A stretch of DNA of 64,000 nucleotides from Treponemataceae bacterium (lineage in GTDB: Bacteria; Spirochaetota; Spirochaetia; Treponematales; Rectinemataceae): NCBI GenBank assembly GCA_963678065.2, contig CAXXVZ010000003.1, positions 96,001 through 160,000 of the forward strand. The letters run 5' to 3'. The position numbers and the translations under genes were made by a program. The notes under the pieces were generated by a model, which did not search any database, was not told where the DNA came from, and saw only the letters and a list, made by a program, of their open reading frames with translations. Of the stretch, positions 956-29,640 are shown one piece after another. Numbering within the stretch: the first letter of the stretch is position 1; every line of letters starts with the position of its first letter.

Positions 956-2140
956 ATGACTGTCGCAATCACCGGGCATCGAAACGCTTGCCTGTCGGTC
1001 CACATTCCCTATGATCCCCGCCTCATCCGCTCCATCAAAGGAATTCCGGATCGACACTGGGATCCGGAAAGCGGATGCTGGCTTATCCCTGACACCCAAA
1101 GCCACGTCGATAGGCTCCTCATGGTCCTGTACGACACAGGCATGTTCACCGCTCCCGATCCTGAAAAAGCCGGAACTGCCGTTGTCGATCCACTCTTGAA
1201 GCGCTACGAAGAAGCCCTCGACGCGCGCCACTTCAGCCCCCGGACAAAACGCGCTTATACCGCCTGGGTGAACCGCTTTCTTGCGCACTGCGGCGGACGG
1301 CAAGCCGCTTTCCTGGGCGAAACGGAAATCAATGTATTTCTGAGCTTCCTGGCCGTTCATGAAAAAGTGAGTGCATCCACCCAAAACCAGGCTCTTGCCG
1401 CCCTGCTTTTTCTTTACAGGCAGGTCATGGGTCGACGAATCGGCGAACTCGACGAGGTAATCCGGGCAAAAAAGCCGACAAGACTACCCGTCGTGATGAG
1501 CCGCGACGAAGTCAGGGCAGTCCTGTCGAACTTGCGGGGCGACAGATGGCTTGCCGCCGCGCTGATGTATGGCACGGGATTGCGCCTCATGGAATGTCTC
1601 GAACTCAGAGTCCAGGACATAGACTTTGCACGGAACGAAATCCTCGTTCGCAACGGCAAAGGCGCCAAAGACCGAGTCACCATGCTTCCTGAATCGCTGA
1701 AAAAACCACTTCGCGACCATCTGGCCACAGTCAGGGCCATTCACGACCACGACATATCTGAAGGCTGGGGGAACGTGCCCGTACCAAACGCGCTGGACCG
1801 AAAATACCCGAACATCGCCGCAGATTTCCGCTGGCAATGGATTTTCCCCCAGGGACGGCGCTGGACTAACCGCGAAACCGGCCAGCAAGGCAGACACCAC
1901 ATCGACGAATCCCTCGTTCAGAAAGCCGTCCATGAAGCCGTACTCAAAGCCGGTCTGACAAAACGCGCCAGCTGCCACAGTTTCCGCCACTCCTTCGCCA
2001 CCCAACTCCTGGAAAACGGCTACGACATACGCACCGTCCAGGAACTCCTGGGCCACAGCGACGTCAAAACAACGATGATCTACACTCACGTACTGAACCG
2101 CGGCCCTTCGGCGGTCCGCAGTCCCGTCGACGGCCTTTGA
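956..2140 (+). CDS. intI: Integron integrase (tyrosine recombinase) with N-terminal extension
   Basis: [22 protein letters not shown] and [12 protein letters not shown] motifs, plus the IntI-specific insertion ([10 protein letters not shown]...WQWIFP); followed by an attC array. Confidence 0.97.
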
Positions 2141-7636: not shown

Positions 7637-9031
7637 GAGGCTTTTTCAAAACTTCGTAATCCGCTTTGTAAAAAAGCGAGTTATTGTAACTGAAGCTTCG
7701 TTTTTGCACAGTAAAAATTACATGTGCAGTAAAAAGGGCTCTCTTTTCAGTGCAAAAGATGGACTACCCCTACAAAATCCGGTTCTGCCGGATTGCCCGG
7801 TTACGATTTCTGCAGTTCGGGAAGGATGAAGTACTGCAAAGCCTTGACGGCCGCCAGAACCACTACCCCGCACATGAGCAGGAATGATACTTTCTCAAAT
7901 CCCCGTACAAATATCTGACCCGGTATGAGCCAATCCTTCAAATGCGAGTTTGCACGTTCAACCGTTGTCCTGATTGTGTACCGCTCCTTCTGTGACGGCG
8001 AAAATGGTTCCCGTTCCGTCCCACGACGCGTATTCCGATCAATCAGCGGAACACGCCCACGTCCCTGGATATAGGTCGCGATGGGATCCGCATCGTATGC
8101 AGCGTCCATGACTGAATACAGATGTCGGACCTTTTTCTCTGTTATCTTTTCCAGAGGAATCGCTACTTGCGAATCATGAACATTGGCGCCGGTTACGACT
8201 GCTGAAATAGGGAATCCTGTGTCGCTGACATCAAGGTGCAACTTGTATCCTTTCCATGTTTCCCTATTCCCCTGGCTGTTCTTCTTGCATCCCCATGCAC
8301 AGTCTTTGGATAGTTCTGACAAGGATTTCCTGACGCTTTGGCCGACTTGCTTTTCTATCTGTGTCGGCTCCTTCACAGGCCGAACTTCTCCTTTTCGGGG
8401 ACGACCTCGTTTCCGTTGCGGTGTCACGGAAGAAACAGCTTCACGTTTGGCAGGTACAGGTTTTTCTCGTGCTCGTATCTCCGTCGCATCCCGATTTATG
8501 TGTCCGACGATATGGCCGTCATGACAATCCTTCACCATGGTATTCAAAGTCTGAATCAGCGGAGTCTTTTTTGAAAACTCCGCGTAGCGACGCGAAAAGG
8601 TCGCAGAGCTTGGAACGGAGGTGAAGCCGCATATCCTCCGCAGATTCGGATCGTTGATCAGCCTGTTCCTAAGGTCCGTGACTGTCGCTATGTGGAATAC
8701 CGTTCGGGCGAAAAACGCCCGCATGATCGGTTCGTTCCGATGTGGAGGACGGCCAGTCCGTGCACATGGTGATGTAATCCGTGGCTGAGCATCTTCAATG
8801 ACTCTGAGCAGGGCGATAAAAAAGCGATGCTCGTCGGTGAGATATTCTTCGAAACATCGCTGGATATCGTAGGAAATCGGCAAAAGTATTTGCGCTCCGC
8901 CCAGTATTTCTGGTATGGTTTTCATCAGCGGGGGCTCCTCCTGGTGACGTTTGTGTTGCAACATCATCATACAGGTTCTGTCCCCGCTTTTCATTAAAAT
9001 TCGTTCATCTCATGACTTTTGAAAGAGCCTC
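7637..9031 (-). mobile_element. IS5/IS1182-like insertion sequence, 1395 bp
   Basis: 15-bp terminal IRs (GAGGCTTTTTCAAAA / TTTTGAAAGAGCCTC, one mismatch); 4-bp direct repeat TAGT at 7633-7636 and 9032-9035. Confidence 0.9.
7801..8925 (-). CDS. DDE transposase (IS4/IS5 superfamily)
   Basis: DATEI, WKGYKLHL, ANVHDS, MDAAYD and RTTVERANSHLK motifs. Confidence 0.9.
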   Translation of the reverse strand: MKTIPEILGGAQILLPISYDIQRCFEEYLTDEHRFFIALLRVIEDAQPRITSPCARTGRPPHRNEPIMRAFFARTVFHIATVTDLRNRLINDPNLRRICGFTSVPSSATFSRRYAEFSKKTPLIQTLNTMVKDCHDGHIVGHINRDATEIRAREKPVPAKREAVSSVTPQRKRGRPRKGEVRPVKEPTQIEKQVGQSVRKSLSELSKDCAWGCKKNSQGNRETWKGYKLHLDVSDTGFPISAVVTGANVHDSQVAIPLEKITEKKVRHLYSVMDAAYDADPIATYIQGRGRVPLIDRNTRRGTEREPFSPSQKERYTIRTTVERANSHLKDWLIPGQIFVRGFEKVSFLLMCGVVVLAAVKALQYFILPELQKS

Positions 9032-9565: not shown

Positions 9566-9671
9566 ATATAACAACCGCTTCGACCTGACTCGGCTCTGTC
9601 ACGATTCTTGCATGAACAACAATGCAAGAATCGTGACAGTTAACGCCTCGCAGGTCAAGCGAATGTTAGAT
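9566..9671 (+). other. attC6
   Basis: ATATAAC...GTTAGAT; R'' complements GTTATAT at 7093. Confidence 0.92.
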
Positions 9672-11268: not shown

Positions 11269-14200
11269 ATGAATTGGAAAATTTTTTGTGTAAAATACGA
11301 CAATCGAGAGGCATGGGCATTTGAACAAATGTCTTATTTGCTTTTCTGTGCAGAGTTTAATAATCGAATTGGATTATTTCGCTATAAAAACCAAACAGGA
11401 ATTGAGACAGAGCCAATTGAAAAAGACGAAAAATATTATGGTTTTCAATCCAAATATTACACGACCTCAATCGCTGACAATAAAGGCGACATTATTGATT
11501 CAATCCAAAAAGCCAAATCAAAAAACATACAATTAGATGAATTATTTCTCTACATCAACCAAGAACTTTCCGAAAGCACCACTAAAAGTAAGAAGAAACC
11601 TCAATACCAATTAGACATTGAGAAATCCGTTAAGGCAGTAGGCGTAAATATTCAATGGCGAGTTCCAAGTCATTTTGAATTACAATTGTCTTTGCCGGAA
11701 AATAAATATATAAATGACATTTTTTTCAGCCTTGACCCAAACGAAGGAGATTTGCTTGATGAAATTTCTAAACACAATGAAAATATTCTAAAAGCAATTC
11801 AAACTGAAATATCTTTTGGCGACAAGCAAATTAAAATTGACCGAAATTCTGTCGTTGAAGCAATAGCAAATGCTACTCAAAAGAAAAAAAATATAATTAT
11901 TTCAGGCGAAGGTGGTTGCGGTAAGACCGCAATTTTCAAGGAGTTTTATAATTTCTATTTTAAGAAGATACCAATTTGTGTTTTTAAAGCAAACGAGCTT
12001 AATGTAAATCACATTAATGATATATTTCACTTTGACCACAAATTCACATTTGTGCAGTTTCTCAATGCTTTTAAAGATGAACCTATTAAAATATTTGTAA
12101 TTGATTCCGCAGAAAAACTTGCAGAGATTTCTAACAGCGACATTCTTACTACACTAATACAACAGTTAAAAGAAAACGCTTGGAATATCATCTTTACAAC
12201 ACGCTACGCTTATCTTAACGATTTAACTTTTCATATTAAAGAGAATTATCAGTTACCATTTGACGTTAATGATGTTTCTTTGATTGGTGCTGATGAATTA
12301 AAATCAATAGCAGAAGAATTCAAATTCTCACTTCCTGACAATCAAAAATTCTTAGAACGACTTAGAAATTTGTTTTATCTGAGAGAGTATGTTCAACAGT
12401 ATTTAAACATTGATAAACAAGGAAACTATAAAGGATTTATTGACTTGCTTTGGAAAAAGCGAATACAAAATACCGTTCAAAAAGATAATTTACATCTTGA
12501 AAGAGAAAAGTGCATTATCAATATTGCTAAACAAAGATGCGAAACAGGTCGGTTTTATATCAATGCAGATGATTTGTCACAATCAGCGTTGTTCCAATTA
12601 AAGCAAGACGAAATACTTGGTTATGATGATACACATAACGGATATTTTATTACTCACGACATTTATGAAGAATGGACGTTGGACAAAATAGTTTCCCGTA
12701 GTTTTTCAAATTATTCAAACATAAAAGAGTTTTTTGACGAATTAGGGAATTCATTGCCCATTCGTAGAGCATTTAGATTGTGGTTATCTGACCATTTATC
12801 TGAAAATTCTAAAGAAATAGAAAGTTTTATTCAGGGAGCATTTACAAATGTTGAGGTTACTCAATTTTGGAATGATGAAATTTTAGTTTCAGTTTTATTG
12901 TCAGATTATTCAGCGACATTTTTTAAGTTTTTCGAGAACGAAATTATTGCAAATGATTTTAAAATACTAAAGCGGATTTTGTTTCTATTAAGAATTGCAT
13001 GCACCGATATTTCAGCAATTCAAAATATTGAAATTATAAAACCTAAAGGCAAAGGTTGGGAAGAAGTAATTGACCTTATTCACATACATAAATCTGACTT
13101 TTTCGATAGCAATTTAAAACTTGTTTTACCAGTGTTAAACGATTGGTGCGAATTCAACAAAAAAGGAGAAACAACAAGGTATTCGGGTTTATTAGCTTTA
13201 AGTTTAATAAAAAAGACAGAAACCGAAAAAAACTTCTACATGAAAGAAGTTGCAGAAGAAAATATTTTGAAAGTAGTTTTCAATGCAGCCAATGAAATAC
13301 AAACAGAATTAAAAGAAATATTTGATAAAGTAGTTGCTAATAAATGGAATGAACACCAAGACCCATACGAAAAGCTTTGTTCGAAAATTTTAACAAAACC
13401 TTACCTAGCTTTAGAGGTAATAAAAATTCTTCCATTATCTGTAATTCAATTATGTAACTTGTATTGGCAAAAACGAGAAAGAGAAAATGACGGATTCGGA
13501 TATGAAAGAGATAGTATGGAGAATAAATATGGTTTAGTTGATGAATTTAGACATGATTATTTTCCTGCAAGTGCTTTTCAAACGCCGATTTATTGGTTAC
13601 TACAATATCGTTTTAAAGAAACTCTTGATTTCATAATTGACTTTACAAATCGAGCTGTTAAAACTTATAGTCAGTCTGATTATGGTAAAGAAGATGTTGA
13701 AGAAATTAATCTTAATGTCAATGATAAAGAAGTAACACAATTTTTAAGTTGGTCAATTTGGGCTATGTATCGTGGGGTTGGTAGTCCAGTTGTACCCTAT
13801 TTATTGCAATCTATCCACATGGCTTTAGAAAAAATTCTTTTAGAATTTTCTCAGATATTGAAGTCTGAAATAGTTCAATCTATACTTCTTAAAATTCTTA
13901 TAGAATCAAAATCAACTTCACTAACCTCAGTTGTTTGCAGTGTTGTATTAGCAAATCAAGATAAATTCTATGATATTTCTTTAGTATTATTCAAAACAAT
14001 TGAATTGTTTCATTGGGACTCAGTTAGAAGCTTAAATGAATTTCAAGTGTTTAATCCTATCCTGCCCCAAAAGGAATATTGCACCAAAGAGAGAGCAGAT
14101 GCCAAGGAAGCAAAACATCGAAATTCAAATTTAGAATCATTATTCTTAAATTATCAGCTTTTCGGTGTAAAAGGGTTTAGCGAAGAACAAAATATTGAAT

Positions 14201-15936
14201 TCATCGAAAAATTGTATAAAATAATCGACCATCATAAATCCAATGTTTTAAAAGCAAAATCATTTGGAATATTATTGGCCAGAATGGACAGACGAAATCT
14301 GATACCAAAAGTATCAAACCATGGCGACAATAATTTACTAATAGAATTTAGTCCAAAAGAGCTTTCTGAAGAACTTAAAAAGGAAAGCGAGGAAGCCACA
14401 AATCAATATAAAGAGGCTTTTAAATATTCTTCTCTAAGAATCTGGGCGGATTTTTTGATTGGAGTGAGAACTCAAACAAAAACCACAAAACAAGAGGAAT
14501 ATAACAACAATCCTCTTTTAGCTTTAGCTGAGACGAAACAACTTGTTGCAGAATTGCAATCTGGACGAAATATAGGTATCTTGGATTATTCAATCCCAGG
14601 GTTTTCTTGCTCAAAATTAATGATTGAATACAAAGACAAACTATCAAAAGAAGATAAAGATTTTTGCAAAGAAATTATTCATTCTTCCCTGTTAAATCTT
14701 TTTGCCGATGATTACGATTATCAAATAAGTGATGGTGTTGAAGCATCTGTTCATGCGATTCCAGCATTAGTAAATGAATATCCAGAAGAAGCAGAAAATT
14801 ATGTTTCAATAATGGTTTTAGCACTAATAGATGAAACACCAATTGGACAGTACAAAAGAATATGCGATTACGTCATTGAATCAATTCACAAATCAAAATT
14901 GTGGGAGCAAAATTCAAATGTTGCGCAATCAGTTTTATTTGGCTATGTAAAACTCAAGCCTATTTATAAAAATATTATTGCGGAAATAAGGAAAGAAAAA
15001 GGTTGGGGACGAATTTCTAAAAGTTCGATTTTTGAAAAGTTAGAAATGATAAAACCTGATTTTACTTTTGAAAATATATCATTTGACATTCATGATATTG
15101 CTTCACTTGACATTCATGATTTGGAAATAGTTCTTCAAATAATTCCTTCTGATACGAAAAATAAAATTCATTTAGATATTTATGCGAAATCATTGCCGTC
15201 ATTGGCATCACAGTTATTGAAAGATAGGAGAAGCTATAAAGACGATTCAGGAGACGACTCTAACATTTACCTGTTACGTCAACATATTTTCAAAAATTTT
15301 GCTTATTTCATTTTACAAAGAGAACAAAGCGAAATTGAAGTGTTCCTTAAACCATTTATTGATTCGTTTTCTTCAACAGAAGAAACAGCTTCATTTATTG
15401 AAGAATTAGTAATTGCAGAAGATTACTTAAACAAGTATGAACAATTTTGGTACATTTGGAACAGCCTATATTCGAAAATAAAAGAACTATGTGCAAATCC
15501 ATGTGGCTATCATTTAAAAGAAATCATAATAAATTACCTATTAGCATGGCGTTGGTGGAGTGAAGGTATAGAAGCATGGCGTAGCTTAAAAAGGGAAAAT
15601 TTGTCTCTCTATGCTAATGTTTCTAAGGAAATAGGAAATATTCCTTCTGTATTGTATTCTATTGTCAAAGTTTTGAATTCAATTGGAAGCAACTTTAAAG
15701 ACGAAGGCATTGACTGGATTCATATAATTGTATCAACTAATTGCTCTTTAAATCTTGGTGATTTAGAATCAAATACCTTATACTACTTAGAGAAGTTTTT
15801 AAGGAAATTTATTTTCGTTAATAGACAAAAAATCAAGGAAGAAATTAGATTGAAAAATAAAATTATTCCGATTCTTGATTTCATGATTGAACGAGGTTCT
15901 ATACATGGATATTTATTAAGAGAAAGTATTCTTTAA
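11269..15936 (+). CDS. avs4: Cassette 9: AVAST type 4-like antiphage protein (Mrr-like nuclease + STAND NTPase + helical sensor)
   Basis: N-terminus FEQMSYLLFCAEF...FRYKNQTGIETEPI...GFQSKYY resembles Avs4; Walker A GEGGCGKT; Walker B FVIDSAE; 1555 aa. Confidence 0.88.
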   Translation: MNWKIFCVKYDNREAWAFEQMSYLLFCAEFNNRIGLFRYKNQTGIETEPIEKDEKYYGFQSKYYTTSIADNKGDIIDSIQKAKSKNIQLDELFLYINQELSESTTKSKKKPQYQLDIEKSVKAVGVNIQWRVPSHFELQLSLPENKYINDIFFSLDPNEGDLLDEISKHNENILKAIQTEISFGDKQIKIDRNSVVEAIANATQKKKNIIISGEGGCGKTAIFKEFYNFYFKKIPICVFKANELNVNHINDIFHFDHKFTFVQFLNAFKDEPIKIFVIDSAEKLAEISNSDILTTLIQQLKENAWNIIFTTRYAYLNDLTFHIKENYQLPFDVNDVSLIGADELKSIAEEFKFSLPDNQKFLERLRNLFYLREYVQQYLNIDKQGNYKGFIDLLWKKRIQNTVQKDNLHLEREKCIINIAKQRCETGRFYINADDLSQSALFQLKQDEILGYDDTHNGYFITHDIYEEWTLDKIVSRSFSNYSNIKEFFDELGNSLPIRRAFRLWLSDHLSENSKEIESFIQGAFTNVEVTQFWNDEILVSVLLSDYSATFFKFFENEIIANDFKILKRILFLLRIACTDISAIQNIEIIKPKGKGWEEVIDLIHIHKSDFFDSNLKLVLPVLNDWCEFNKKGETTRYSGLLALSLIKKTETEKNFYMKEVAEENILKVVFNAANEIQTELKEIFDKVVANKWNEHQDPYEKLCSKILTKPYLALEVIKILPLSVIQLCNLYWQKRERENDGFGYERDSMENKYGLVDEFRHDYFPASAFQTPIYWLLQYRFKETLDFIIDFTNRAVKTYSQSDYGKEDVEEINLNVNDKEVTQFLSWSIWAMYRGVGSPVVPYLLQSIHMALEKILLEFSQILKSEIVQSILLKILIESKSTSLTSVVCSVVLANQDKFYDISLVLFKTIELFHWDSVRSLNEFQVFNPILPQKEYCTKERADAKEAKHRNSNLESLFLNYQLFGVKGFSEEQNIEFIEKLYKIIDHHKSNVLKAKSFGILLARMDRRNLIPKVSNHGDNNLLIEFSPKELSEELKKESEEATNQYKEAFKYSSLRIWADFLIGVRTQTKTTKQEEYNNNPLLALAETKQLVAELQSGRNIGILDYSIPGFSCSKLMIEYKDKLSKEDKDFCKEIIHSSLLNLFADDYDYQISDGVEASVHAIPALVNEYPEEAENYVSIMVLALIDETPIGQYKRICDYVIESIHKSKLWEQNSNVAQSVLFGYVKLKPIYKNIIAEIRKEKGWGRISKSSIFEKLEMIKPDFTFENISFDIHDIASLDIHDLEIVLQIIPSDTKNKIHLDIYAKSLPSLASQLLKDRRSYKDDSGDDSNIYLLRQHIFKNFAYFILQREQSEIEVFLKPFIDSFSSTEETASFIEELVIAEDYLNKYEQFWYIWNSLYSKIKELCANPCGYHLKEIIINYLLAWRWWSEGIEAWRSLKRENLSLYANVSKEIGNIPSVLYSIVKVLNSIGSNFKDEGIDWIHIIVSTNCSLNLGDLESNTLYYLEKFLRKFIFVNRQKIKEEIRLKNKIIPILDFMIERGSIHGYLLRESIL

Positions 15937-16614: not shown

Positions 16615-17907
16615 TAAAGTGCGCCTAATCGTCAATACAGAAAAAAAGAAAAATAAGGTGGATCCCAATTTGTCCTTGTATTCATGAATTTCTATGCTGC
16701 CAGCCGTAGGCTGAAGCATCGGTTATACACCTCATCCGGTGTAGCATACTCAAGGGACTGATGAAATCGTTCCTGGTTGAAGAAATTGAAGTATTTGTCG
16801 ACGGCGGTCTTTAGTTCCACGAGCGATTCGTACGAGTTCAGGTAAATTTCTTCGTACTTCAGTGACCTCCAGGTCCGCTCGATATAGATGTTGTCCAAAG
16901 CCCGGTTGACGCCATCCATGCTGATCTGGATTCCTTTGGCTTCAAGAACCGAGACAAACGCCTCGGATGTGAACTGGCTCCCTTGGTCGGTGTTGAAGAT
17001 CCCGGGAGTCCCGTGTACGGTAAGGGCTTCTTCCAGAGCATCGATGCAGAATCCTACATCCATCGTATTCGAGATTCGCCACGACAGAACTTTCCGTGAA
17101 AACAGGTCGATAATCGCCACGAGATAGACATGAGACCCATTCACCTTCAGGTAGGTCACATCCGTTGCCCAGACATGGTTCGCTATCCATATTTTCTTGT
17201 CTCGCAATAAATACGGGTACTTCTTGTGGTGTTTCGACGGTTTCGATAGATTCTTGCCGGGAAAGAGAGCCTTGAGTCCTGCCCGCTTCATGATCCGCCT
17301 GACCTGCTTGCGGGTGACCTTCATATCCTTCAAGGCACAGGCCATCCGCCGGTATCCATAGAACGGATGCTTGTTCAATTCTTCGAGAATTGCCGTGAGT
17401 ACGGCCATCCCCCACTCGTCATCCATCTTTACTGATGTGTAGTAATACGCCGATCTGCTGATTCCCAACAGTTCACATTGCGTGATGATCGGCAGATCCT
17501 GATTGTCGGGTTCTACAAGTTCGGCTCGCTCCCGTACACCTGTCGGTACTTTTTTTTTAGAAACGCATTCTCGACCTGGAGTTGCCCAATCTGCTTGAAG
17601 AGCTCGTCCTGCTTCTCTTGGGCTACTTCTGCTTCCTTGTCCTTCCCTGATCTTTCAAAGAGCGTGGCTACTTGATCGACCACATGCTTTTTCCATTGGG
17701 CAATCTGATTCGGATGCACTCCATAGATTTGGGACAGTTCCTGAAGGGTTTTCTCGTTCCGGACTGCTTCCATGGCCACTTTGGCCTTGAAGCTGGTGTC
17801 GTAGCTTTTGCGCATGGTGTACTCTATGCCTCCCGTATCTTTTTTTACAAGGAGGAATGTCACCTTATTTCCCTTTGTTTCCTGTCTGATTTCTTGGGCT
17901 CATTATA
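16615..17907 (-). mobile_element. IS3-family element, 1293 bp, inserted in the R'' box of attC10
   Basis: Imperfect 26-bp IRs (15/26 matches); 3-bp direct repeat CCC at 16612-16614 and 17908-17910. Confidence 0.88.
16692..17863 (-). CDS. IS3 transposase OrfA/OrfB, joined by a probable -1 frameshift
   Basis: OrfA HTH (17513-17863); OrfB rve core (WATDVTY, NTDQGSQF, DNIYIER); A9G slippery run near 17549-17558 on the minus strand. Confidence 0.88.
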
Positions 17908-18063
17908 CCCAACACCTGCTTCAACCTTATAAAGCCTTTTGTCATGGTTTTTGCAAAACAACAATGCAAAAACCACGCCAATCCTTCGCTTCGCTCAGGC
18001 CAGGCTTTAAAGATATTATGAGTATACGATCTTGAGGGAGGAAACGAAGAAAGGTAACATTGG

Positions 18064-18261
18064 AATTGTACGGAAGTAGAAGGAAGATGAAGGTTGGGCT
18101 TAACCTGGGACACAGAGCCCGATTGCAGATTAACCAGCCTTCTTCGGACAATCCCTTGGGATCGTTTTTAAATCGACGAAAACCCGGATAGAAGTATGAA
18201 GGCCTACTACTTGTTTCCAAGATAGAGGCTTCGATTCTGCCTGATACTTCTGGTGTACAAT
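18064..18261 (+). ncRNA. Predicted bridge/seek RNA
   Basis: Closing stem ATTGTAC/GTACAAT; two parallel internal loops carrying guides that match the attC target and the element junction. Confidence 0.75.
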
Positions 18262-18271
18262 ACGGGGGAGG

Positions 18272-19429
18272 ATGGAGATGACCGAAAAGGAAAGGATCAC
18301 CAACGTCAGTGAATGTGAAGAAATCGAGGCGAGTTATTATGGCATCGATCTTCATAAGGATCAAATAACCTGGCATTGCATCGATCGGACATCGAAGGGG
18401 ATTTTGGTTCGTAGAACAGGGAAGATATTGACGGATCGTATCCATGAGGATTTCATTCCGATGCTGCGCAAGGAAAAATGCTATGTAATCGTGGAAGCCT
18501 CCGGGTCAACTTTTTTCTTCCACAGCCTGATACAAAGCCACTGCACGAAGGCGATCATCGTCAATCCATCTGCTTTCCGGGAACTGTATATGACCGGGAA
18601 AAAGACAGACCGGATCGACGCGAAGAAATTGGCTGACCGGCTGATGTACCACATAGAGATGGAGGACGGCGACGATGGATTTCCCGAAGTATTTGTTCCG
18701 GACGAGGAAGCCCTGAAGATCCGCAAACTGGTAACAACCTATGAATTATTGGTTAAGCAGATTACCCAGGCAAAGAACCAAGTGAAGGCCATCTTCCGTT
18801 CAAAAATAATTAATGTCGATGTAGACGTGTTGGATAATGGACTGGAAATAGCCCTACAAAATGTGAGCCTGGACAACGCGGACAAAATTATCGTTCGGTC
18901 GCTCAAAGGATTGTACGATACTTTGTGTCGCGAGAAACAGACCATCAAGGAAGCGATACTCTCCATAGGAGTACGCCGATTTCGAGACGAAATAGCGCTT
19001 CTCACCAGTATATCAGGAGTAAGCATCATCGGGTCGATTGTCTTCATGTCAGATATAGTAACTGTAGGACGCTTTGATTCCGCCAAGAAGTTGACATCCT
19101 ATTTGGCCAGCGTCGGAAAGGTAGACGCATCGGGAAATACTACGAAGAACGGCGGACTCAACAAACGTGGAAGGCGAACCTCGTACCGTTTCATCCTGCA
19201 AGGCCTTGAACATATAGTCAATGGTAACGAAGGGTTCCAGCGATTCAGGGCAAGGCATGCCTCGAAGCGATCAAACAAAATAAGGGCGGCAATTGTACGC
19301 AAGACCTTTGTCACGATGTATTACATGTTAAAGAATCATGACATGTACCGTTTTCTGAATAAATCCATCTATACTCGGAAAATAAGGGAACTGAACAAGA
19401 TCAAAAAAATAATTGAAAAAGCGGCTTGA
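18272..19429 (+). CDS. IS110-family DEDD recombinase
   Basis: GIDLHK, VEASG and KTDRIDA motifs; C-terminal Tnp domain (SISGVS...DASG). Confidence 0.95.
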   Translation: MEMTEKERITNVSECEEIEASYYGIDLHKDQITWHCIDRTSKGILVRRTGKILTDRIHEDFIPMLRKEKCYVIVEASGSTFFFHSLIQSHCTKAIIVNPSAFRELYMTGKKTDRIDAKKLADRLMYHIEMEDGDDGFPEVFVPDEEALKIRKLVTTYELLVKQITQAKNQVKAIFRSKIINVDVDVLDNGLEIALQNVSLDNADKIIVRSLKGLYDTLCREKQTIKEAILSIGVRRFRDEIALLTSISGVSIIGSIVFMSDIVTVGRFDSAKKLTSYLASVGKVDASGNTTKNGGLNKRGRRTSYRFILQGLEHIVNGNEGFQRFRARHASKRSNKIRAAIVRKTFVTMYYMLKNHDMYRFLNKSIYTRKIRELNKIKKIIEKAA

Positions 19430-19538
19430 CGGATTTTCTCATAGAAGGTTAAGCAAATGTTGGGTTGACGCTTCGCGCGATGAATATAATTGAGATACGA
19501 TCCCAATTTATGTATTGGTGAAATAGAAAGGACAAAAA

Positions 19539-21263: not shown

Positions 21264-21703
21264 TGGGAACTGACAGTCTGATGGACGATCTACATTCGGC
21301 AATTGTGGTTGCTCAAACGGGTGACCATTCTGAAGCACGGCGACTGTTCACCGAAATTGTACCGCGTTTAGGGGACGACGCAGGAAAGAACTGCATTCTG
21401 GCTCACTATATGGCCGACGTTCAGGATAGCGTTGCAGATGAACTACTTTGGGACCTGAGGTCACTACATCACCTCAAACAGGTGACCGAGGACCAAATTG
21501 AGGTGCTTGGCTCATCCCTGAGGACAAAAGGGTTCTATGCATCAATCTACTTGAACATCGCTAACTGCTACATGAAACTCGGAGAACGGGACCAACTAAT
21601 CAAGTATCTTGACCTTGCGGATGCCAGTTGTGATTTGCTGGACCAGGACGAATACGGAAACTTCATTCGAAGTAGAGTTGCCCTATTGCGTAGTAGAACA
21701 TGA
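21263..21703 (+). CDS. Cassette 12 gene B: TPR-like helical protein
   Basis: TGATG overlap with gene A; CILAHYMADVQD and SIYLNIANCY motifs. Confidence 0.65.
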   Translation: MGTDSLMDDLHSAIVVAQTGDHSEARRLFTEIVPRLGDDAGKNCILAHYMADVQDSVADELLWDLRSLHHLKQVTEDQIEVLGSSLRTKGFYASIYLNIANCYMKLGERDQLIKYLDLADASCDLLDQDEYGNFIRSRVALLRSRT

Positions 21704-21817
21704 ACCTAACATTGTTTTCAACCTGACGGCGCCCTTTGGCATGTAATTTGATATAGGATATCAAATTGCATGCCAATCGCTTCGCGAACGGGCTTGCAGG
21801 TTAAAACAGCGTTAGAA
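21704..21817 (+). other. attC12
   Basis: ACCTAAC...GTTAGAA; more divergent interior. Confidence 0.88.
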
Positions 21818-22113
21818 TGACTAAAGCATACCGATAGAGAGAAAGGATTTGAGGTGAAGAAGAGCTGCGCAAAGAGACCGTGGAAAAGCCGCCTGAAAGA
21901 ACTCTCTATGCGTTCGCAGAAAAAGGCGGCGGGAGAACGGTCGAAGAGCGCAGCAAGACTTAGAAAAATGGGAATAAGAGATCACACCGAGAGGTTTGCT
22001 GGTACGAAGAGCGTCGCGAGGAACCGTCCCAGGAGCGCGCAGTCGCGCGCACGAGAATGGGACGGCGAAAAAAGCGCCGCAAGATTGTGGCGACAGATGA
22101 CTGTTGTTCTAAC
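21812..22113 (+). other. Cassette 13: no convincing ORF
   Basis: Bounded by GTTAGAA and the complementary TTCTAAC; the only + ORF reads through the attC. Confidence 0.65.
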
Positions 22114-22120
22114 AACTGCT

Positions 22121-24039
22121 GTGTGCCACGAAATCTGATGGGCACTTTTGAATAGTGATTCAGGAGGTGTCATAAGAGCTGTACGACAGATGAGGAAACA
22201 CCGGGGTAGCTGGTGTGAGCCTCGGGATCTGCTTGCAGGAGCCGGTCTCAAACCGCCAGAAGCTGCTTGGATAAAGAGTCCCGGTGGTGAACGTATCTGG
22301 TTAAAAGGCCCCCGCATGACGGGGTCAGGTGTGGTATCAGGAGGCGAACGAAAGTGAACCGACCGATGAGGTGTCGAAAGTGAGTTTGATGAGGTCAAAA
22401 GCAGTGATTAGCTAGTGCGCTGTGAAAAGAGTCCATCGGGAAACCTGTGTACTGGGTGGACGGCCTCCGGCATTAAGGCGGCGTGAATTGATACTGGGCT
22501 GTTGTATGGAACGTGGGAACCTGTCGTTCCGATGTGAAGGGAGAACCTCAAGCGGCGAACCCGACGAGAGGGAGAGTACCGATGCGGAGCACAGGGACGT
22601 CGCCAGGATGGCGCCGGCTCGTAGTAGTGATGAAGTTCCTGTAACGGGAATGGAGCGAAGGGGCCGACATACTCGTGTCTTTTCTGAACGCCAACTGGCG
22701 ACAGGATGAACGGATGGGAAAGGCAAAACCGTTTGACATACCGAAGCGACTCGTATGGAAGGCATACCAGCGTGTACGGGCGAACGATGGGGCGGCGGGG
22801 ATCGATGGACAGACGCTTGAGAAGTTTGACGGGAAGCTCTCGAAGAATCTCTACAAGCTCTGGAACCGGATGTCCTCGGGCAGCTATCATCCAGACCCAG
22901 TGAAGAGGGTGGAGATTCCGAAGAAGAGCGGAGGAACGCGAGTGTTGGGAATACCGACAGTCGCGGATCGAATCGCGCAAATGACCGCGCGGTTGTGTTT
23001 CGAGCCCATGGTGGAGCCAGGGTTCCATGACGATTCCTACGGATATCGACCGGGGAAATCAGCCCACCAGGCCGTGGCGAAAGCCCGGGAACGGTGCTGG
23101 AAATACGACTGGGTCATCGATCTGGACATCAAGGGATTCTTTGATACCATCGAGTGGGAGCTCATGATGAAGGCGGTGGCGTTTCACAAGCCGCCCGAGT
23201 GGGTTCGGCTGTATATCGAGCGATGGCTCAGAGCCCCGGCAAAGGATGACGCGGGAACGATCATTGAGAGGGATACGGGAACGCCGCAGGGTGGGGTGAT
23301 AAGCCCGCTGCTGGCGAATCTGTTTCTGCAGTACGCCTTCGACATGTGGATGGAACGGAGACACGGGGGAAACCCTTTCGAGCGCTATGCTGACGACATC
23401 GTCAACCACTGCCGGACACAGGCGGAGGCAGAAAATCTCCTCGAAGAGATCAAGCTGCGATTGGCCGAGTGCAAGCTGACGGTACATCCGGAGAAGACGA
23501 AGATCGTGTATTGCAAGGATCGGAACCGTAGGGGAGACTATGAAAGGACCGAGTTTGACTTCCTCGGCTTCACCTTCAGGCCGCGCACGGCGAGGGGGAA
23601 GAACGGGAAGCTCTTCGTGGCCTTTACCCCGGCGATCAGCAGAAAATCCGAGCAGGCGATCAAGGACACGATCCGGACGTGGCGAATCCAGAGGGCGGCG
23701 ACAGCGACCCTCGAAAGTTTGTCGAAACTGTACAACTCGAAGCTTGCGGGATGGTTTGCCTACTACGGGAGATTTCGGCCATCGGCAATGTACGGAATCT
23801 TGTGCATGTTCCAGAAAATCCTCGTAAAATGGGCAAAGTGCACATACAAGCGCCTGAAGAGGAGCTGGCTGAAGGCCGCCGAACTCATGAAGAATGCAGC
23901 TGACAACAAGAAGCACTTGTTCATTCACTGGGAGCATGGATGATATGCCAATGGTAGAGTGTGAAGAGCCGTATGATGGGAGACTATCACGTACGGTTCC
24001 GTGAGAGGCTGGGGGTGAAAATCCCCCGGCCTACTCGAC
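22121..24039 (+). mobile_element. Full-length group II intron, RmInt1-like (class D)
   Basis: 5' GTGTG; domain V GAGCCGTATG...GTACGGTTC from 23966; domain VI with bulged A, ending CTCGAC. Confidence 0.93.
22714..23943 (+). CDS. ltrA: Group II intron reverse transcriptase/maturase, no endonuclease domain
   Basis: NLYKLWNRMSSGSY, GTPQGG, YADD, KTKIVYCKD and C-terminal LFIHW motifs. Confidence 0.95.
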   Translation: MGKAKPFDIPKRLVWKAYQRVRANDGAAGIDGQTLEKFDGKLSKNLYKLWNRMSSGSYHPDPVKRVEIPKKSGGTRVLGIPTVADRIAQMTARLCFEPMVEPGFHDDSYGYRPGKSAHQAVAKARERCWKYDWVIDLDIKGFFDTIEWELMMKAVAFHKPPEWVRLYIERWLRAPAKDDAGTIIERDTGTPQGGVISPLLANLFLQYAFDMWMERRHGGNPFERYADDIVNHCRTQAEAENLLEEIKLRLAECKLTVHPEKTKIVYCKDRNRRGDYERTEFDFLGFTFRPRTARGKNGKLFVAFTPAISRKSEQAIKDTIRTWRIQRAATATLESLSKLYNSKLAGWFAYYGRFRPSAMYGILCMFQKILVKWAKCTYKRLKRSWLKAAELMKNAADNKKHLFIHWEHG

Positions 24040-24180
24040 TCAACCTTACAAATCCTTTGGCATGGTTCTTGCGAAAGATTACGCAAGAACCATGCCAAGC
24101 CCTACGGGCACGGATTTAAAGGTTAAGCGAATGTTAGCCGGACGCCGAATCTATTCACACCAATAAGGAGATTTCCCGAA

Positions 24181-24927
24181 ATGGACATTCCACGGATCTT
24201 CAACATCACCGAAAGTGCTCACCGCATCCATAATCCGTTCACACCCGAAAAGCTCGCCACTCTCGGCGCGGCGCTACGTCTGGAAACGGGGACCCGAGTG
24301 CTCGACCTCGGCAGCGGTTCGGGGGAGATGCTGTGCACCTGGGCACGTGATTACGGAGTCATCGGCACCGGCATCGACATGAGCCAGTTGTTCACCGAGC
24401 AAGCGAAACTCCGTGCTGTAGAACTCGGCGTCGCCGATCAAGTCAAGTTCATCCATGGCGATGCTTCCGGCTATGTCTCTGACGAGAAGGCCAGCGTGGC
24501 AGCCTGTGTCGGTGCCACTTGGATCGCCGGGGGAGTCATCGGCACTATCGAGCTTCTGGCGCGGAGCCTGTGCACCGGAGGGATCATCCTCATCGGCGAG
24601 CCCTACTGGCGGCAGTTACCGCCGACGGAAGATGTTGCCAAGGGGTGTCTTGCCAACTCAATCTCCGATTTTCTCATGCTTCCAGAACTTCTCGCGTCTT
24701 TCAGCCATTTTGGCTACGACGTCGTTGAAATGGTTCTGGCTGACCAAGACGGCTGGGACAGATACGAGGCGGCCAAATGGCTCACCATGCGCCGATGGCT
24801 TGAAGCCAATCCTGACGACGAGTTCGCGAAAGATGTTCGAGCCAAACTGACCTCGGAGCCCGAGCGCTACGCCACTTACACGCGTGAATACCTGGGCTGG
24901 GGTGTGTTCGCGCTGATGCCGCGGTGA
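24181..24927 (+). CDS. Cassette 14: class I SAM-dependent methyltransferase (YjhP-like)
   Basis: VLDLGSGSG and GIDMS motifs; higher GC than neighbouring cassettes. Confidence 0.88.
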   Translation: MDIPRIFNITESAHRIHNPFTPEKLATLGAALRLETGTRVLDLGSGSGEMLCTWARDYGVIGTGIDMSQLFTEQAKLRAVELGVADQVKFIHGDASGYVSDEKASVAACVGATWIAGGVIGTIELLARSLCTGGIILIGEPYWRQLPPTEDVAKGCLANSISDFLMLPELLASFSHFGYDVVEMVLADQDGWDRYEAAKWLTMRRWLEANPDDEFAKDVRAKLTSEPERYATYTREYLGWGVFALMPR

Positions 24928-25064
24928 TGCGTTAGCGCATCCGGCGGATCGTCAACGGCTGTGCCGCGCAACAGCTGGTGGCTCGTCACAATGTGATTGC
25001 GCCTGAATTCATTTCTTATGGTCTGGTTATCCATGCAATCAACAGAAAGGCCTGTCTCAGGCAG

Positions 25065-25078
25065 GCCTAACAATTCAT
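25065..25078 (+). other. attC14 left part
   Basis: GCCTAACAATTCAT directly followed by an intron 5' end. Confidence 0.8.
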
Positions 25079-25306
25079 GTGTGCCACGAGATCTGATGGG
25101 CACCTTTGAATGGAGATTCAGGAGGTGTCATAGGAGCTATGCGACAGATGAGGAACCATTTTCGCAAGGAAACGGGAGCCTCTGGATCTGCTTGTAGGGG
25201 CCGGTCTCAAACCGCCAGAAGCTGCTTGGATAAAGAGTCGACGAGAGGGAGAGTACCGATGCGGAGCACAGGGGCGTCGCCAGGATGGCGCCGGCTCGTA
25301 GTAGTG
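25079..25306 (+). mobile_element. Degenerate group II intron 5' fragment
   Basis: Aligns with 22121-22280, then jumps to ~22563-22629: a ~280-nt deletion that removes the EBS region. Confidence 0.88.
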
Positions 25307-25559
25307 GCGCTGCCGGAAAACAGGGTAGTAGCTGTTTTGGGTTTTGTGGATTCTGGCGGAACAAGGCGAAAGCCTGGATTTTCCGCGCAGATTTCCGCAT
25401 TCCCCGAAATGACAGTTCCTAACAGTCGGGGGGTGATGCCACCAGTTGTCATGATGGGGGAGTATATCGCGGGAATCGGGGCGAGCAACGGGAGGAGGGA
25501 TTCGTCGTCGGCTTGCCTTGACAAGGGAAAGCATGGCGACCCATGCTTCATGCTCCACT

Positions 25560-26495
25560 ATGAAAATCGATAGGCTCCTGTCCATCGTCGTCTACCTTCT
25601 CAACCGTGATCTGGTGAGCGCGAGCGCACTGGCGAAACGTTTCGGCGTTTCGGTTCGGACGATTCAGAGGGACATGGAAGCAATCGATCTGGCAGGCATT
25701 CCGGTGATCAGCGTCCAGGGGCCGTCGGGCGGCTACGGCATCATGGACGGCTATAAGATGGATCGGCGCTTGGTGACCGTGGACGACCTCTTCTTCATCA
25801 TCACCGCGCTACGCGGCATCGAAGATTCGCTGGACGACCGCCGGATAGGCGACGCCTTGGAGAAGATGCGTGGGCTATTGCCGTCGGCGAACGATAATGG
25901 ATTCAAGGACAGGGAAGAGAAACTCCATATCGATTTCAGCATGCTCGGAGGCGGGCCGGACCAGCGGCGGGTATTCAAGACCGTTCAAGAGGCCGTGAAC
26001 TCGGGTCGGCTTCTTAAGATGGACTACACCAATAACCGGTTGGAACGCGAGTCGCGGATCGTGGAACCGATGACGATCGTGTTCCAGTGGCGCTCGTGGT
26101 ACCTGTTCGCCTATTGCCGCCTCCGAGAAGGGTACCGGCTCTTCCGGATTTCGCGGATTAGGGAGCCGAAGATCCTGGACGAACGCTTCCGGCGGCGGAA
26201 TTACGGTTACGAGGAGTTTTCCCGGGAGAACGATCCGGAGCGGACGGGGAACGTCGTGGAACTGACCCTGAAATTCTCAGGCCGGATGGTCCCAGTGGTG
26301 GAAGAGTTCTACAACAAGGAAGACTTGGAACGAACGGCGGACGGCGGCCTTATCGCCAAAACGCGTATGCCCGAGGACGGTTGGATGTACGGCTATATCT
26401 TGAGCTACGGAGCCTTCGTGGAAGTGCTCGACCCCCCCCATATCCGGGACATCATAAAGTCCGCCGCCCGGCACATTCTGCGAATATACGAATAA
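25560..26495 (+). CDS. YafY/PafBC-like HTH-WYL transcriptional regulator
   Basis: LAKRFGVSVRTIQRDM HTH; RIVEP, WYLFAYC and FRISRI motifs. Confidence 0.92.
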   Translation: MKIDRLLSIVVYLLNRDLVSASALAKRFGVSVRTIQRDMEAIDLAGIPVISVQGPSGGYGIMDGYKMDRRLVTVDDLFFIITALRGIEDSLDDRRIGDALEKMRGLLPSANDNGFKDREEKLHIDFSMLGGGPDQRRVFKTVQEAVNSGRLLKMDYTNNRLERESRIVEPMTIVFQWRSWYLFAYCRLREGYRLFRISRIREPKILDERFRRRNYGYEEFSRENDPERTGNVVELTLKFSGRMVPVVEEFYNKEDLERTADGGLIAKTRMPEDGWMYGYILSYGAFVEVLDPPHIRDIIKSAARHILRIYE

Positions 26496-26508
26496 TTGTT
26501 TTTATCCC

Positions 26509-26524
26509 CGACATACAGGTGTCG
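26509..26524. promoter_or_regulatory. Candidate WYL operator
   Basis: Perfect palindrome CGACA-N6-TGTCG between the WYL gene and the GyrI-like gene. Confidence 0.6.
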
Positions 26525-26571
26525 TATACCCTATGCGATGATCGGTCTATCAATCGATTACGGAGGTATTT

Positions 26572-27024
26572 ATGCAGATCATTGAAAGGAAGGAAACACC
26601 CGTCCTATCCGTCCGCTACAGGACGCCGGCGGCGGAACTGCCGAACAGCATGGGCCGGATTTACGGGGAGATCGCGATGTACATGGGTAAGAGCGGCATT
26701 CCCTTCGCCGGACCGCCTTTCGCAATGTACTACAACATGGACATGAACGACCTGGACGTGGAGATCGGGTTTCCGTTGGCCAAGGCCGCGGTCGGCGAAG
26801 GACGGATCGCGGCAGGCAAGCTGCCGGGAGGCTCCTTCGCGACGGCCAAGCATACAGGTCCATACACGACCATTGAGGCGACGTACAACGCGCTGACAGC
26901 CTTCGTGAAGGACAAAGACGTCCAGATGGAAACCTTCATGTTCGAGGAATACCTCAATTCGCCCGAGGATACTCCGCCTGAAAAGCTTGAGACGGTGATC
27001 TACTTCCCGTTGAAAAGGGCCTGA
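26572..27024 (+). CDS. GyrI-like small-molecule-binding protein
   Basis: HTGPYTTI and EEYLNSP...ETVIYFPL motifs; GGAGG RBS. Confidence 0.88.
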   Translation: MQIIERKETPVLSVRYRTPAAELPNSMGRIYGEIAMYMGKSGIPFAGPPFAMYYNMDMNDLDVEIGFPLAKAAVGEGRIAAGKLPGGSFATAKHTGPYTTIEATYNALTAFVKDKDVQMETFMFEEYLNSPEDTPPEKLETVIYFPLKRA

Positions 27025-27303
27025 AAACGGGGCCGACCGCTTCCAGCACCCGGCAAAGGCCGGATGCAGCGGCGGTCGGCCAATCCGGGGAGCGCCCATG
27101 TACGCGTAGGACAACCGAATACCCCTTCGAATTCCTCAAGAACCCGGAAGAACCGATATTTTGGGGGAGCATAACGTTGCAGCGCTTTTCAAATAGGAAC
27201 TGCGAAATCATACTGAACAAGCTTTAAACTTCCGACGCACCTGTTTCCAGCAGCAACATCAAGGACGCACCCAATATTTTACGAAAGACCATCACCGAGG
27301 GGT

Positions 27304-28460
27304 GAGATATGATCAATTGTTGTGGACAGGGGAATAGGAAACGGACGTTCATTTCCGGTAGGGTTTTGTCGCCAAACGAAACCACCGAAAGGGAGAACGT
27401 CCGTGCGACAGACTACAATCAAGCCTCAAAATGATGCAATGCCCGAAACCATGCTGGTGCTGGAAGCCCTCATACGAGAGGGAGCCCGAAAACTGCTCCA
27501 TGCAGCATTGGAAGATGAAATCGAAGCGCATCTTGCCCGGTATCGTGATCTGAAAGACACAAACGAGAGACAGTGTGTGGTGAGAAACGGATACCAGCCG
27601 GAACGGACAGTCCTCACGGGAGCAGGACCCATTCCGGTCAAGCGTCCACGGGTAGACGACAGGATATTGGCAAAAACAGGCGACGAGCGTTTCACAAGTA
27701 CGATATTGCCGAAGTTTATGAGACGGGCGGCGAGCATCGATTCCCTCGTACCTGCGCTGTACCTGAAAGGGATTTCCACCGATGATTTTCCGACAGCCTT
27801 GGAGGCAATCCTGGGTCCACAGGCAAAGGGGCTTTCAGCAACCACGGTAGTACGGCTGAAAGAAGTGTGGACCGATGAATACGAGGAATGGAATAAGCGG
27901 GATGTGAGCGGGAAGCGATATGTGTCCATCTGGGCCGATGGGGTGTACTGCTCTGCACGGCTCGAAGATGAACGATCCTGCTTTCTGGTTATCATGGGCG
28001 CTGATTCATTCGGTAAAAAGGAATTGCTTGCTGTTTCCGACGGTTTCAGGGAAAGCGCGCAGTCCTGGAGAGAGCTTCTTCTCGGCCTTCGCTCTAGGGG
28101 ACTTGTCCACGTACCTTCCCTTGCTGTCTGTGACGGTGCCATGGGATTCCAGGCGGCGGCTGCGGAAGTATGGCCGGAAACAAGAATCCAACGCTGCTGG
28201 TTCCATAAGTCCGGCAATGTCGTGGATACGCTGCCCAGTTCTATCCAGGCAAAGGCCAAGGACATGCTCCACGACCAGTATCTCGCGCCGACGAAAGAGG
28301 ACGCGCTCAAGGCTTTCAGCCTGTTCATTGAAACATTCGGAGCCAAATATCCGAAAGCGGTGGAATGCTTGACAAAGGACAAGGACGACCTGTTCGCCTT
28401 CTACGATTTTCCTGCTGCCCATTGGGTACATATTCGGACGACGAATCCTATTGAATCGAC
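27304..28460 (+). pseudogene. Truncated IS256-family element (transposase from GTG 27403)
   Basis: RNGY, LYLKGIST, IWADG and QRCWFH motifs; homology ends after RTTNPIEST; no right end found. Confidence 0.88.
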
Positions 28461-28612
28461 ATTACCAATGTCATCAAGGCTCAGTCGACTCTTTTCGCCC
28501 ATTGGGAGTGGGGGGGTACGGTACAGGCAGAATATGAAGAGCCGTATGAATCAAGAGATTCACGTACGGTTCCGTGAGGGGCTGAGGGTGAGATTTCCTC
28601 GGCCCACTCGAC
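28461..28612 (+). mobile_element. Group II intron 3' fragment (RT tail + domains V-VI)
   Basis: Frame from 28461 reads ITNVIKAQSTLFAHWEWG; domain V from 28539; ends CCCACTCGAC. Confidence 0.88.
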
Positions 28613-28708
28613 CTTATTAATCCTTTGCCATGGTTCTTGCGAGAAGATCACGCAAGAACCATGCCAAGCCCTTCGGACACGGATTTAAAGGTTAAGCCAA
28701 TGTTAGAA
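28613..28708 (+). other. attC14 right part
   Basis: CTTATTAATCC...GGTTAAGCCAATGTTAGAA; same subfamily as attC13. Confidence 0.85.
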
Positions 28709-28745
28709 GGACACCGCTCACGCGGCGCAAAAGGAGAGCAAAAAC

Positions 28746-29573
28746 ATGAAACAAGAATATAAAGCGGATCTAGATAGTATATTGGCAACACAAAACATTA
28801 ATGGTGGAGAATATTGGTCAACATCAGACGGTGGAATAGCAAAAGGTGTTCCGTTTTCAACATTGGAAGCAGGAATGATGCTTTATGAAATAGGTTATGA
28901 TAATCAAAGTAAAGAAATAAAAGGAATAGCAGATTTAATACTTAAGAACATCAGAGAAGATGGACGGATTAAAGTATATCCATCTGGAACAATATACCCT
29001 TGCCAAACCTCGAATGCAGCAAGAACACTTTCTTGCTTGGGATATTCACGTGATCAAAGATTAGATGCATCGTATTCATATTTCTTGAAAACCCAACAAC
29101 CAGATGGCGGATGGCGCTGCAATGCCTCGAAATTCGGGAATGGTCCTGAAACAAAGTTCTCAAACCCAGGTCCAACATTAACAATACTTGACGTGTTTCG
29201 ATTTACAAAACATCTCAATATTGATGAACAATTAGATAATGCTGTAGAATTCTTATTGAAACATTGGGAAACGAAACTTCCACTCGGTCCTTGCCATTAT
29301 GGAATTGGCACACTATTTATGAAAATTGAGTTTCCAATGGTTAGATATAACGTATTTCATTATGTGTATACATTGTCTTTTTATGATAAAGCAAAAAGAG
29401 ATCCGAGATTCCTTGAAGCGCTAAAAGTGATAACAGACAAATTAGTAAATGATAAAATTGTTACAGAAAGCACAAATAAGAAACTATCAAAGTATGTGTT
29501 TTGCATGACAAATGTCCCGAATGCAATTGCAACAGCGCATTATAATGAGATAGTTGAAAACCTGGAAAAATGA
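28746..29573 (+). CDS. Cassette 15: prenyltransferase/squalene-oxidase repeat-like protein
   Basis: QQPDGGW repeat motif; GGAG RBS. Confidence 0.7.
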   Translation: MKQEYKADLDSILATQNINGGEYWSTSDGGIAKGVPFSTLEAGMMLYEIGYDNQSKEIKGIADLILKNIREDGRIKVYPSGTIYPCQTSNAARTLSCLGYSRDQRLDASYSYFLKTQQPDGGWRCNASKFGNGPETKFSNPGPTLTILDVFRFTKHLNIDEQLDNAVEFLLKHWETKLPLGPCHYGIGTLFMKIEFPMVRYNVFHYVYTLSFYDKAKRDPRFLEALKVITDKLVNDKIVTESTNKKLSKYVFCMTNVPNAIATAHYNEIVENLEK

Positions 29574-29578
29574 GTTTC

Positions 29579-29640
29579 TTCTAACACCTGCTGTGTGCCA
29601 CGAAATCAGATGGGCACTTTTGAATGCTGATTCAGGAGGT
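29579..29640 (+). mobile_element. attC15 left part plus a 48-nt group II intron 5' remnant; end of the array
   Basis: TTCTAACACCTGCT | GTGTGCCACGAAATCAGATGGGCAC..., near-identical to 22121-22168. Confidence 0.85.

Follow-up and report, generated by a model that had tools for sequence, protein, structure and literature searches.

Bacterial group II introns that target the attC recombination sites of integrons have hitherto been seen as one class C lineage, which reads the hairpin formed by the attC bottom strand. These IIC-attC introns, such as S.ma.I2 and Kl.pn.I3, lack an endonuclease (En) domain and lie mostly in the last cassettes of their arrays (PMC3001079). They insert antisense, in the bottom strand, at TTGT/T in the R'' box, where the hairpin replaces intron-binding site 2 (IBS2) (PMC7923331; publications given by PubMed Central (PMC) number are cited for the parts of their text available to us). 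The intron described here lies in the integron cassette array of a Treponemataceae bacterium, in a stretch of 64,000 nucleotides (nt) of contig CAXXVZ010000003.1, positions 96,001 to 160,000 (hereafter the window; G000:C3:96001-160000 in our numbering, with window coordinates used unless a contig prefix is given). Like IIC-attC introns, it is specialised on attC, En-minus and found mostly in the last cassettes; unlike them, it is assigned to class D (IIB3), RmInt1 type, and occupies the top strand at GCT|TCAA within the L'' box. It therefore shares the niche of the IIC-attC introns, not membership of their family. Judged from sequence comparison, it represents an endonuclease-less class D lineage that very probably homes to one fixed base in the top strand of attC.

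RmInt1 and RmInt2 of Sinorhizobium meliloti (class D, IIB3) have in common with this intron the clade of the reverse transcriptase (RT), the lack of an En domain, the layout of domain I, a 7-nt exon-binding site 1 (EBS1), a 5-nt EBS2 after a linker, EBS3 and the AGC triad. RmInt1 targets an insertion sequence (IS) element, ISRm2011-2, and needs near-complete pairing, whereas the present intron sits in attC, where EBS1 forms about 4/7 pairs and EBS2 can be dispensed with. In the set of loci compared here, RmInt1 is L241, identified by its 419-amino-acid open reading frame (ORF) and an exon with IBS2 UUCAU at -13 to -9 (PMC3123198).

Top-strand insertion as such has precedents. A class C intron in the top strand of an Enterobacter cloacae attC, co-oriented with the cassettes (Rodriguez-Martinez 2012), is cited in PMC7923331. 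A co-oriented class C intron is also seen in a class 1 integron on the Shewanella algae plasmid NZ_CP033574.1 (L249), where it interrupts the aadA1 attC at R' G|TT, and would appear to be the published E. cloacae intron; it occupies the top strand like the present one, but belongs to class C and sits at the R' G|TT crossover, not in L''. Furthermore, UHB.I2 (CL1/IIB1) lies co-oriented just downstream of an attC, and H.ha.F1/F2 are class E fragments (Sonbol & Siam 2021, PMC7923331); these too are IIB and co-oriented with the array, but have other RT classes, and neither a fixed register nor targeting across a lineage was demonstrated for them. The available text of PMC3001079, PMC4424553 and PMC8876359 names only class C attC introns, that of PMC7923331, supplements included, holds no class D attC intron, and the Treponema integron paper PMC3607928 makes no mention of 'intron'. 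A literature search, with subscription papers, most supplements and the group II intron database outside its coverage, found no class D attC intron. The initial annotation of the window had characterised described attC introns as class C and antisense, which is incomplete in view of the top-strand class C and co-oriented CL1 introns in print (PMC7923331); its proposal of an undescribed, convergent attC-homing element would hold for class D and is qualified by the same precedents.

The complete intron and two fragments

The intron 5' sequence GTGTGCCACGA begins at 22121, 25079 and 29593 in the window, each time 7 nt past the TAAC of an attC R'' box and in the + orientation shared with the cassette ORFs, even though the spacers differ (AACTGCT, AATTCAT and ACCTGCT, respectively). 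These coordinates and spacers agree with the initial annotation, which had read them as three introns; only the first belongs to a complete intron, while 25079-25306 and 29593-29640 are fragments. With TAAC at a frequency of 6.0e-4 per genome position, three of three such ends have a chance probability of about 2e-10 if independent. The piece at 25079 derives from a variant of the intron (variant 2) and is 84% identical to the complete intron over its first 160 nt; a joint omitting the same stretch is present in contigs of public run X2. An intron-free allele of the 25079 site was not found, the 17 plasmid matches spanning the methyltransferase gene only.

The complete intron, termed type A, is 1919 nt long and divides an attC into a left and a right part (Table 1). 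When its exons are joined in silico at AACTGCT|TCAACC, the junction predicted earlier, the product TCTAAC AACTGCT TCAACC...GGTTAAGC GAAT GTTAG takes up the fold of a canonical attC bottom strand, bulged G included, and the R box is not restored in folding when the intron end is left in place. EBS1, EBS2, EBS3, the delta-delta' pair and the AGC triad of a IIB ribozyme were all identified. The delta-delta' pair is U:A in 7/7 type-A copies, C:G in the relatives G044, L001 and L136, and C:A in G126 and G386. The minimum free energy fold of the first 600 nt was no better than that of shuffled sequences (z -1.09), and the ribozyme structure is therefore based on Rfam and alignment. Contig C5 of the same genome carries a second complete copy, with exons AACTGCT|TCAAG; it and the window intron align over their whole length at 94.7%, and the two intron ORFs differ by 59 synonymous and 29 non-synonymous codons. 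As the insertion point is outside coding sequence, splicing would not be required to rescue a gene, and read-through is what matters; a search of 21700-24300 gave no terminator-like site. The intron may, as the initial annotation proposed, splice out of the array transcript; for comparison, exon joining by RmInt1 in vivo amounts to only 0.07% (PMC3123198).

The RT, whose RmInt1-like motifs had been recognised from the start, clusters with RmInt1 in class D (as defined in PMC3552965), with Shimodaira-Hasegawa-like approximate likelihood ratio test (SH-aLRT) values of 96 in a tree of 63 RTs and 99 in one of 31. These were quick IQ-TREE analyses with no bootstrap, the 63 rows having been picked from 150 distinct RTs after removal of near-duplicates. 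Placement of type A with class C, the outcome that would have spoken against the earlier assignment, was rejected (approximately unbiased test, p-AU 0.0056), class C being represented by six RTs with no named IIC-attC protein among them. Within class D, a subclade with support of 98 unites type A (window, C5 and G024), a second attC-associated lineage termed type B (G126 and L136), and G044, L135 and L001; the intron of G044, which is not in attC, is the sister of type A (support 87). The trees neither establish monophyly of types A and B nor reject it (p-AU 0.117). In the window RT, the C-terminal class D motif LX3AX3PXLF[V/A]HW (PMC4615759) keeps A, L, F, H and W and, unlike in RmInt1, has M for L, K for P and I for V/A. 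The strict pattern matched only RmInt1 among ten class D rows, the G044 row ending short of the motif. The nearest named relatives of the window RT are spirochaetes, and the best full-length RT match in a plasmid search was 56.2% among the 40 matches listed.

Recurrence of the TAAC+7 register

The insertion register is not confined to the window. All five type-A 5' ends in the same genome (G000), the complete C5 copy among them, lie at TAAC+7, and a 15-nt intron 5' remnant at G000:C4:118170 (-) lies at TAAC+8, with one extra G. A search with a pattern drawn from the intron interior, and hence blind to flanks, found 12 intron 5' ends in 6/69 genomes of the host family, and targeting of attC extends across the lineage and across genera: 10/12 ends are at TAAC+7 (five in G000, two each in G024 and G075, one in G072) and the other two, in G044 and G045, are elsewhere, in a sample in which kin are non-independent and most genomes incomplete. 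The register spans attC types, from long host-type sites to the short sites of proteobacterial type that G024 and G075 carry. The TCAA 3' exon that marks the top strand is present in 5/5 copies with both ends and at one 3' end in G074; pieces with a 5' end only were assigned to the top strand by their upstream context. In addition, three contigs of public run X6, in which variant 2 is abundant, join at 22108 with different upstream sequence. Among 154 distant class D loci, 0/110 callable 5' flanks and 0/25 callable 3' flanks were at +7 or +12.

Further searches did not extend this distribution. Viral contigs gave 18 pattern matches and no intron as judged by flanks, other genomes of the phylum gave ten matches, none of them an intron on inspection, and 301 genomes of the order together with 20 of the order of G126 added no new attC site. 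Contig G075:C44 (L215 9822-10531 and 11299-12010) carries two type-A introns without an ORF, each about 710 nt long, that occupy consecutive attC sites and presumably moved in trans. The sister introns in L001 (Alkalispirochaeta alkalica) and G045 (L219 and L297) lie right after the stop codon of genes ending RV(R)VVRAF or VRSCRAF, and before TATC. Genes with these endings presumably resemble targets of diversity-generating retroelements or DUF1566-type genes.

Target pairing and strand choice

The exon-binding sites were located by alignment with RmInt1, with which domain I aligns throughout. EBS1 and EBS3 fall exactly where the initial annotation had placed them, whereas EBS2, sought there in GTTAAAA at 22300-22306, is in the right region but comprises only UUAAA, one base inside on each side, with C-8 as the linker between IBS1 and IBS2. 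The position of EBS1 is confirmed by relatives, as G044 has AAUAGU against its own site GCTATT, G386 has AAUGUGG against CCACATT, and type B likewise matches its target. Over seven type-A copies, each scored with its own EBS1, mean pairing at -1 to -7 is 1.0, 0.79, 0.86, 0.14, 0.57, 0.14 and 1.0, in agreement with the earlier proposal that pairing tracks the conserved attC bases. Similarly, among five EBS1 variants, positions 1, 2 and 7 are kept in 5/5 and position 3 in 4/5, while positions 4-6 vary. Variant 2 at C3:849865 is without the UU of EBS2, yet has the same +7 register.

As attC is nearly symmetric, its bottom strand presents a mirror site, CTAAC-ATTGGCT|TAACC, which differs from the top strand at +2 and +4 (top TCAAC, bottom TAACC). 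The window EBS1 pairs better with this mirror than with the top strand, at 5.45 versus 4.35 of 7 over ten intact attC, and at two occupied sites it scores 5.5 and 6 on the mirror versus 4 on the top strand. The mirror is nevertheless unused in every copy with a known 3' exon (five complete copies and the G074 end). The three other EBS1 variants pair about equally with top and bottom (5.3/4.7, 5.25/4.8 and 4.7/5.0).

Several observations weigh against attC homing at a fixed base. EBS1 pairing is weak, with 4/7 at 22121 and 3.5/7 in the G075b copy, and the 25079 spacer pairs at 2.5/7 when the variant-2 EBS1 is used, its own having been deleted. The 22121 site scores 9/13, a value reached or exceeded by 7124 of 10.5 million genome positions. 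The close relatives G044, G045, G019 (the third relative sited outside attC, from a DNA search), L001 and L135 lie outside attC; the attC trait is therefore limited to sub-lineages. The four public sequencing runs examined showed no allele of the 22121 site that lacks the intron, and the raw reads of run X22 gave one partial read only. Finally, the copies at C3:823-850 kb, on the minus strand, may be in an unfavourable replication orientation or near the terminus.

Base pairing alone is insufficient to account for strand choice and specificity at +7, because the better-pairing mirror is unused, the 7124 positions pair equally well and EBS2 is dispensable. The earlier view of pairing as the basis of targeting thus captures the conserved-base pattern and fails on these two points; reading of the 3' exon by the protein, or a replication-strand bias, is probably involved. 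The converse, that pairing alone guides a strand-blind intron whose antisense insertions are harmful or purged, gains from TAAC+7 being unsurpassed in pairing, alone or in a tie, in 12/16 attC strands scored, from the poor strand separation by the three other EBS1 variants and from the finding that antisense S.ma.I2 impedes transcription from the promoter Pc (PMC3001079). It is improbable, however, given that thousands of equally pairing non-attC positions are empty, that no bottom-strand insertion exists despite the better mirror and that antisense class C introns persist in arrays (PMC3001079). Somewhat less improbable, though still unlikely, is recognition of the folded attC hairpin instead of primary sequence, with insertion where the unpaired spacer meets the L box in the top strand. 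Such recognition would fit a register that stays constant despite poor pairing (25079, G075b and G024b) and across attC types, and the top strand folds as well (-38.7 kcal/mol). On the other hand, the sister lineages (type B, G044 and G386) use ordinary pairing of 6-7 bp, the site lies within a stem that must open for EBS1 to pair, and the ribozyme is alignable with that of RmInt1 over the whole of domain I.

It could also be asked whether homing was repeated at all, or whether a single old insertion spread with cassettes or by recombination among intron copies. Mosaic copies exist: window and C5 introns are identical over their first 593 nt, yet differ at 100 ORF positions, and the two copies in G075 are common in their 3' two-thirds. 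Against this stand ten 5' exons from different cassettes with at least seven spacers, differing 3' exons, and the different upstream flanks in the X6 contigs; this flank diversity largely refutes a single insertion, which we consider very improbable.

Under the favoured reading, repeated homing into the top strand, the ribonucleoprotein would reverse-splice into the single-stranded top (cassette-sense) strand at the replication fork; the insertion point would be GCT|TCAA, where L'' starts. Guidance would come from EBS1 pairing with GCT and A-7, from EBS3 with the +1 T and optionally from EBS2 with TAA, and from a further determinant other than pairing. The likeliest such determinant would be recognition by the intron protein of the flanking exon bases that set the top strand, with its extra C, apart from the bottom; recognition of distal exon bases is known for RmInt1-type intron proteins (PMC4615759, PMC3123198). 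The retrohoming step may further be assisted by the lagging-strand template preference of En-minus introns, as described for RmInt2 and Sr.md.I1 (PMC4615759). The attC bottom strand lies on the template for the leading strand in 25/30 chromosomal integrons (PMC5371416), and the top strand therefore lies on the template for the lagging strand in most of them. For the C5 copy, the location of dnaA and of DnaA boxes close to C5:1,175 kb places the top strand on the lagging template, the favourable orientation; for the window array, the orientation of rRNA and tRNA genes indicates the same. Replichore calls from GC skew and codon skew mostly gave no information, including for the C3:823-850 kb copies. 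Insertion parts R'' from the remaining hairpin, so that the site would probably no longer be recombined by IntI and its cassette would be fixed; cassettes fixed in this way would gather at the distal end of the array.

Other class D introns in attC and the cassette array

Absent from the initial annotation is the type-B lineage, of which the window holds a 3' end at TAAC+12, 5 nt deeper into attC than type A (Table 1). This end is closest to L136 (83% over 126 nt), and a second type-B domain V/VI in G000, at C3:823426, is likewise followed by CTTAT. The full type-B relatives, G126 (L238) and L136, lie at TAAC+12 after YTTCAAC. Their EBS1, GUUGAAA or GUUGAAG (GUUGAAR), is complementary to this L'' sequence, pairs at 7/7 and 6/7, and tells the strands apart by pairing (top 6.9 versus bottom 4.7 of 7). 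Two further type-B candidates, L299 (G005) and L302 (G075:C2), are assigned by their 3' flanks alone. An unrelated class D intron is present in four copies in G386 (L261 and L263-L265), after CCACATT in perfect match to its EBS1; 2/4 copies are inserted half-way along attC-like sites that have R'', L' and R' boxes, and the other two differ in their 3' flank. Placement of G386 in one clade with types A and B was rejected (p-AU 6e-6).

A tentative extension, which we regard as doubtful, is that class D has switched its target to the top strand of attC on at least two occasions, perhaps three (at TAAC+7, at TAAC+12 and, in G386, in the middle of the hairpin), and that the protein of the +7 lineage reads the extra C, leaving site choice largely uncoupled from pairing. 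Were this so, reading of the extra C would allow very different attC, including short proteobacterial-type sites, to be used and their cassettes to be frozen. The extra C marking the top strand is the partner of the extrahelical base used by IntI.

Table 1. Features of the integron, its cassette array and the intron sequences in the window.
Feature	Position	Strand	Remarks
Integron integrase intI	956-2140	+	TIGR02249 450 bits, cut-off 265
Cassette array	2310-29640	+	12 proximal intron-free attC, then 4 distal attC all with intron sequence
Left part of split attC	22107-22120	+	R'' TCTAAC, spacer, L'' start; 5' exon: IBS2 -13 to -9, IBS1 -7 to -1
Class D (IIB) group II intron, type A (TAAC+7)	22121-24039	+	GUGUG start, AC end; Rfam RF01999, RF00029
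EBS2 UUAAA	22301-22305	+	homologue of RmInt1 AUGAA; 4/5 pairs with TCTAA; missing in variant 2
delta U22409 and EBS1 AGCUAGU (22410-22416)	22409-22416	+	ID3 loop; EBS1 4/7 pairs with AACTGCT
EBS3 (A)	22475	+	pairs with +1 T; from alignment to RmInt1; type B has G with +1 C
RT/maturase, 409 amino acids	22714-23943	+	RT and X domains; YADD; no En domain; TIGR04416 417.7 bits, cut-off 300
Domains V (AGC triad) and VI	23964-24039	+	Rfam
Right part of split attC	24040-24139	+	TCAACC...; L' GGTTAAGC 24121-24128; R' GTTAG 24133
S-adenosylmethionine (SAM)-dependent methyltransferase cassette	24181-24927	+	
Left attC part, spacer AATTCAT	25065-25078	+	poor EBS1 match
5' fragment of type-A variant 2	25079-25306	+	positions 1-160 of the intron fused to 442-509
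WYL/HTH regulator and GyrI-like gene	25518-27024	+	no attC bounding them
IS256-family element	27322-28470	+	abuts type-B intron end
Type-B intron 3' end (ORF tail, domains V and VI)	28488-28612	+	insertion at TAAC+12; Rfam domains V/VI 28537-28612
Right attC part beginning CTTAT	28613-28708	+	past L'' ...TTCAAC
Last cassette ORF	28746-29573	+	no Pfam or NCBIfam match
Left part of last attC, spacer ACCTGCT	29579-29592	+
48-nt type-A 5' stub	29593-29640	+	terminates array

The array is that of an integron, with an integrase above the family cut-off and attC sites in which R and L boxes are present and the bottom strand has an extrahelical G. On the + strand, attC has the layout CTAAC-N4-GCTTCAACC...GGTTAAGC-N4-GTTA, and two of the 12 proximal sites (near 9570 and 11090) were read by eye. 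The integrase gene is the only intI of the genome (a single tblastn match at E<=1e-20); it has the same orientation as the cassettes and an N-terminal extension of about 80 amino acids ahead of the TIGR02249 match. The intron-bearing attC are the last 4/16, an arrangement with a chance of 1 in 1820 if the sites are independent, which deletions make them not to be; it fits a split site that probably does not recombine. The array end adjoins the groEL terminator region.

Among other features of the array, an IS110-family element (17909-19460) splits one proximal attC, and further IS elements lie at 7801-8994 and 16692-17863. A cassette protein of 1555 amino acids (11269-15936) has a weak STAND NTPase match and may be encoded by a defence gene. 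The short cassette at 21816-22110 has no clear gene, and a basic open frame from 21854 crosses R'' into the intron.

The complete, apparently intact copy is amenable to the existing RmInt1 two-plasmid assay, and the type-A sites as a whole offer a natural experiment on the minimum EBS pairing needed by a IIB intron. A class D lineage in the top strand would mean that integrons have been exploited convergently as a niche that is safe and multi-copy, and it predicts a link between the orientation of an array relative to replication and the class of intron able to invade it. If a split attC is inert, such introns would fix cassettes and thereby shape the old end of arrays.

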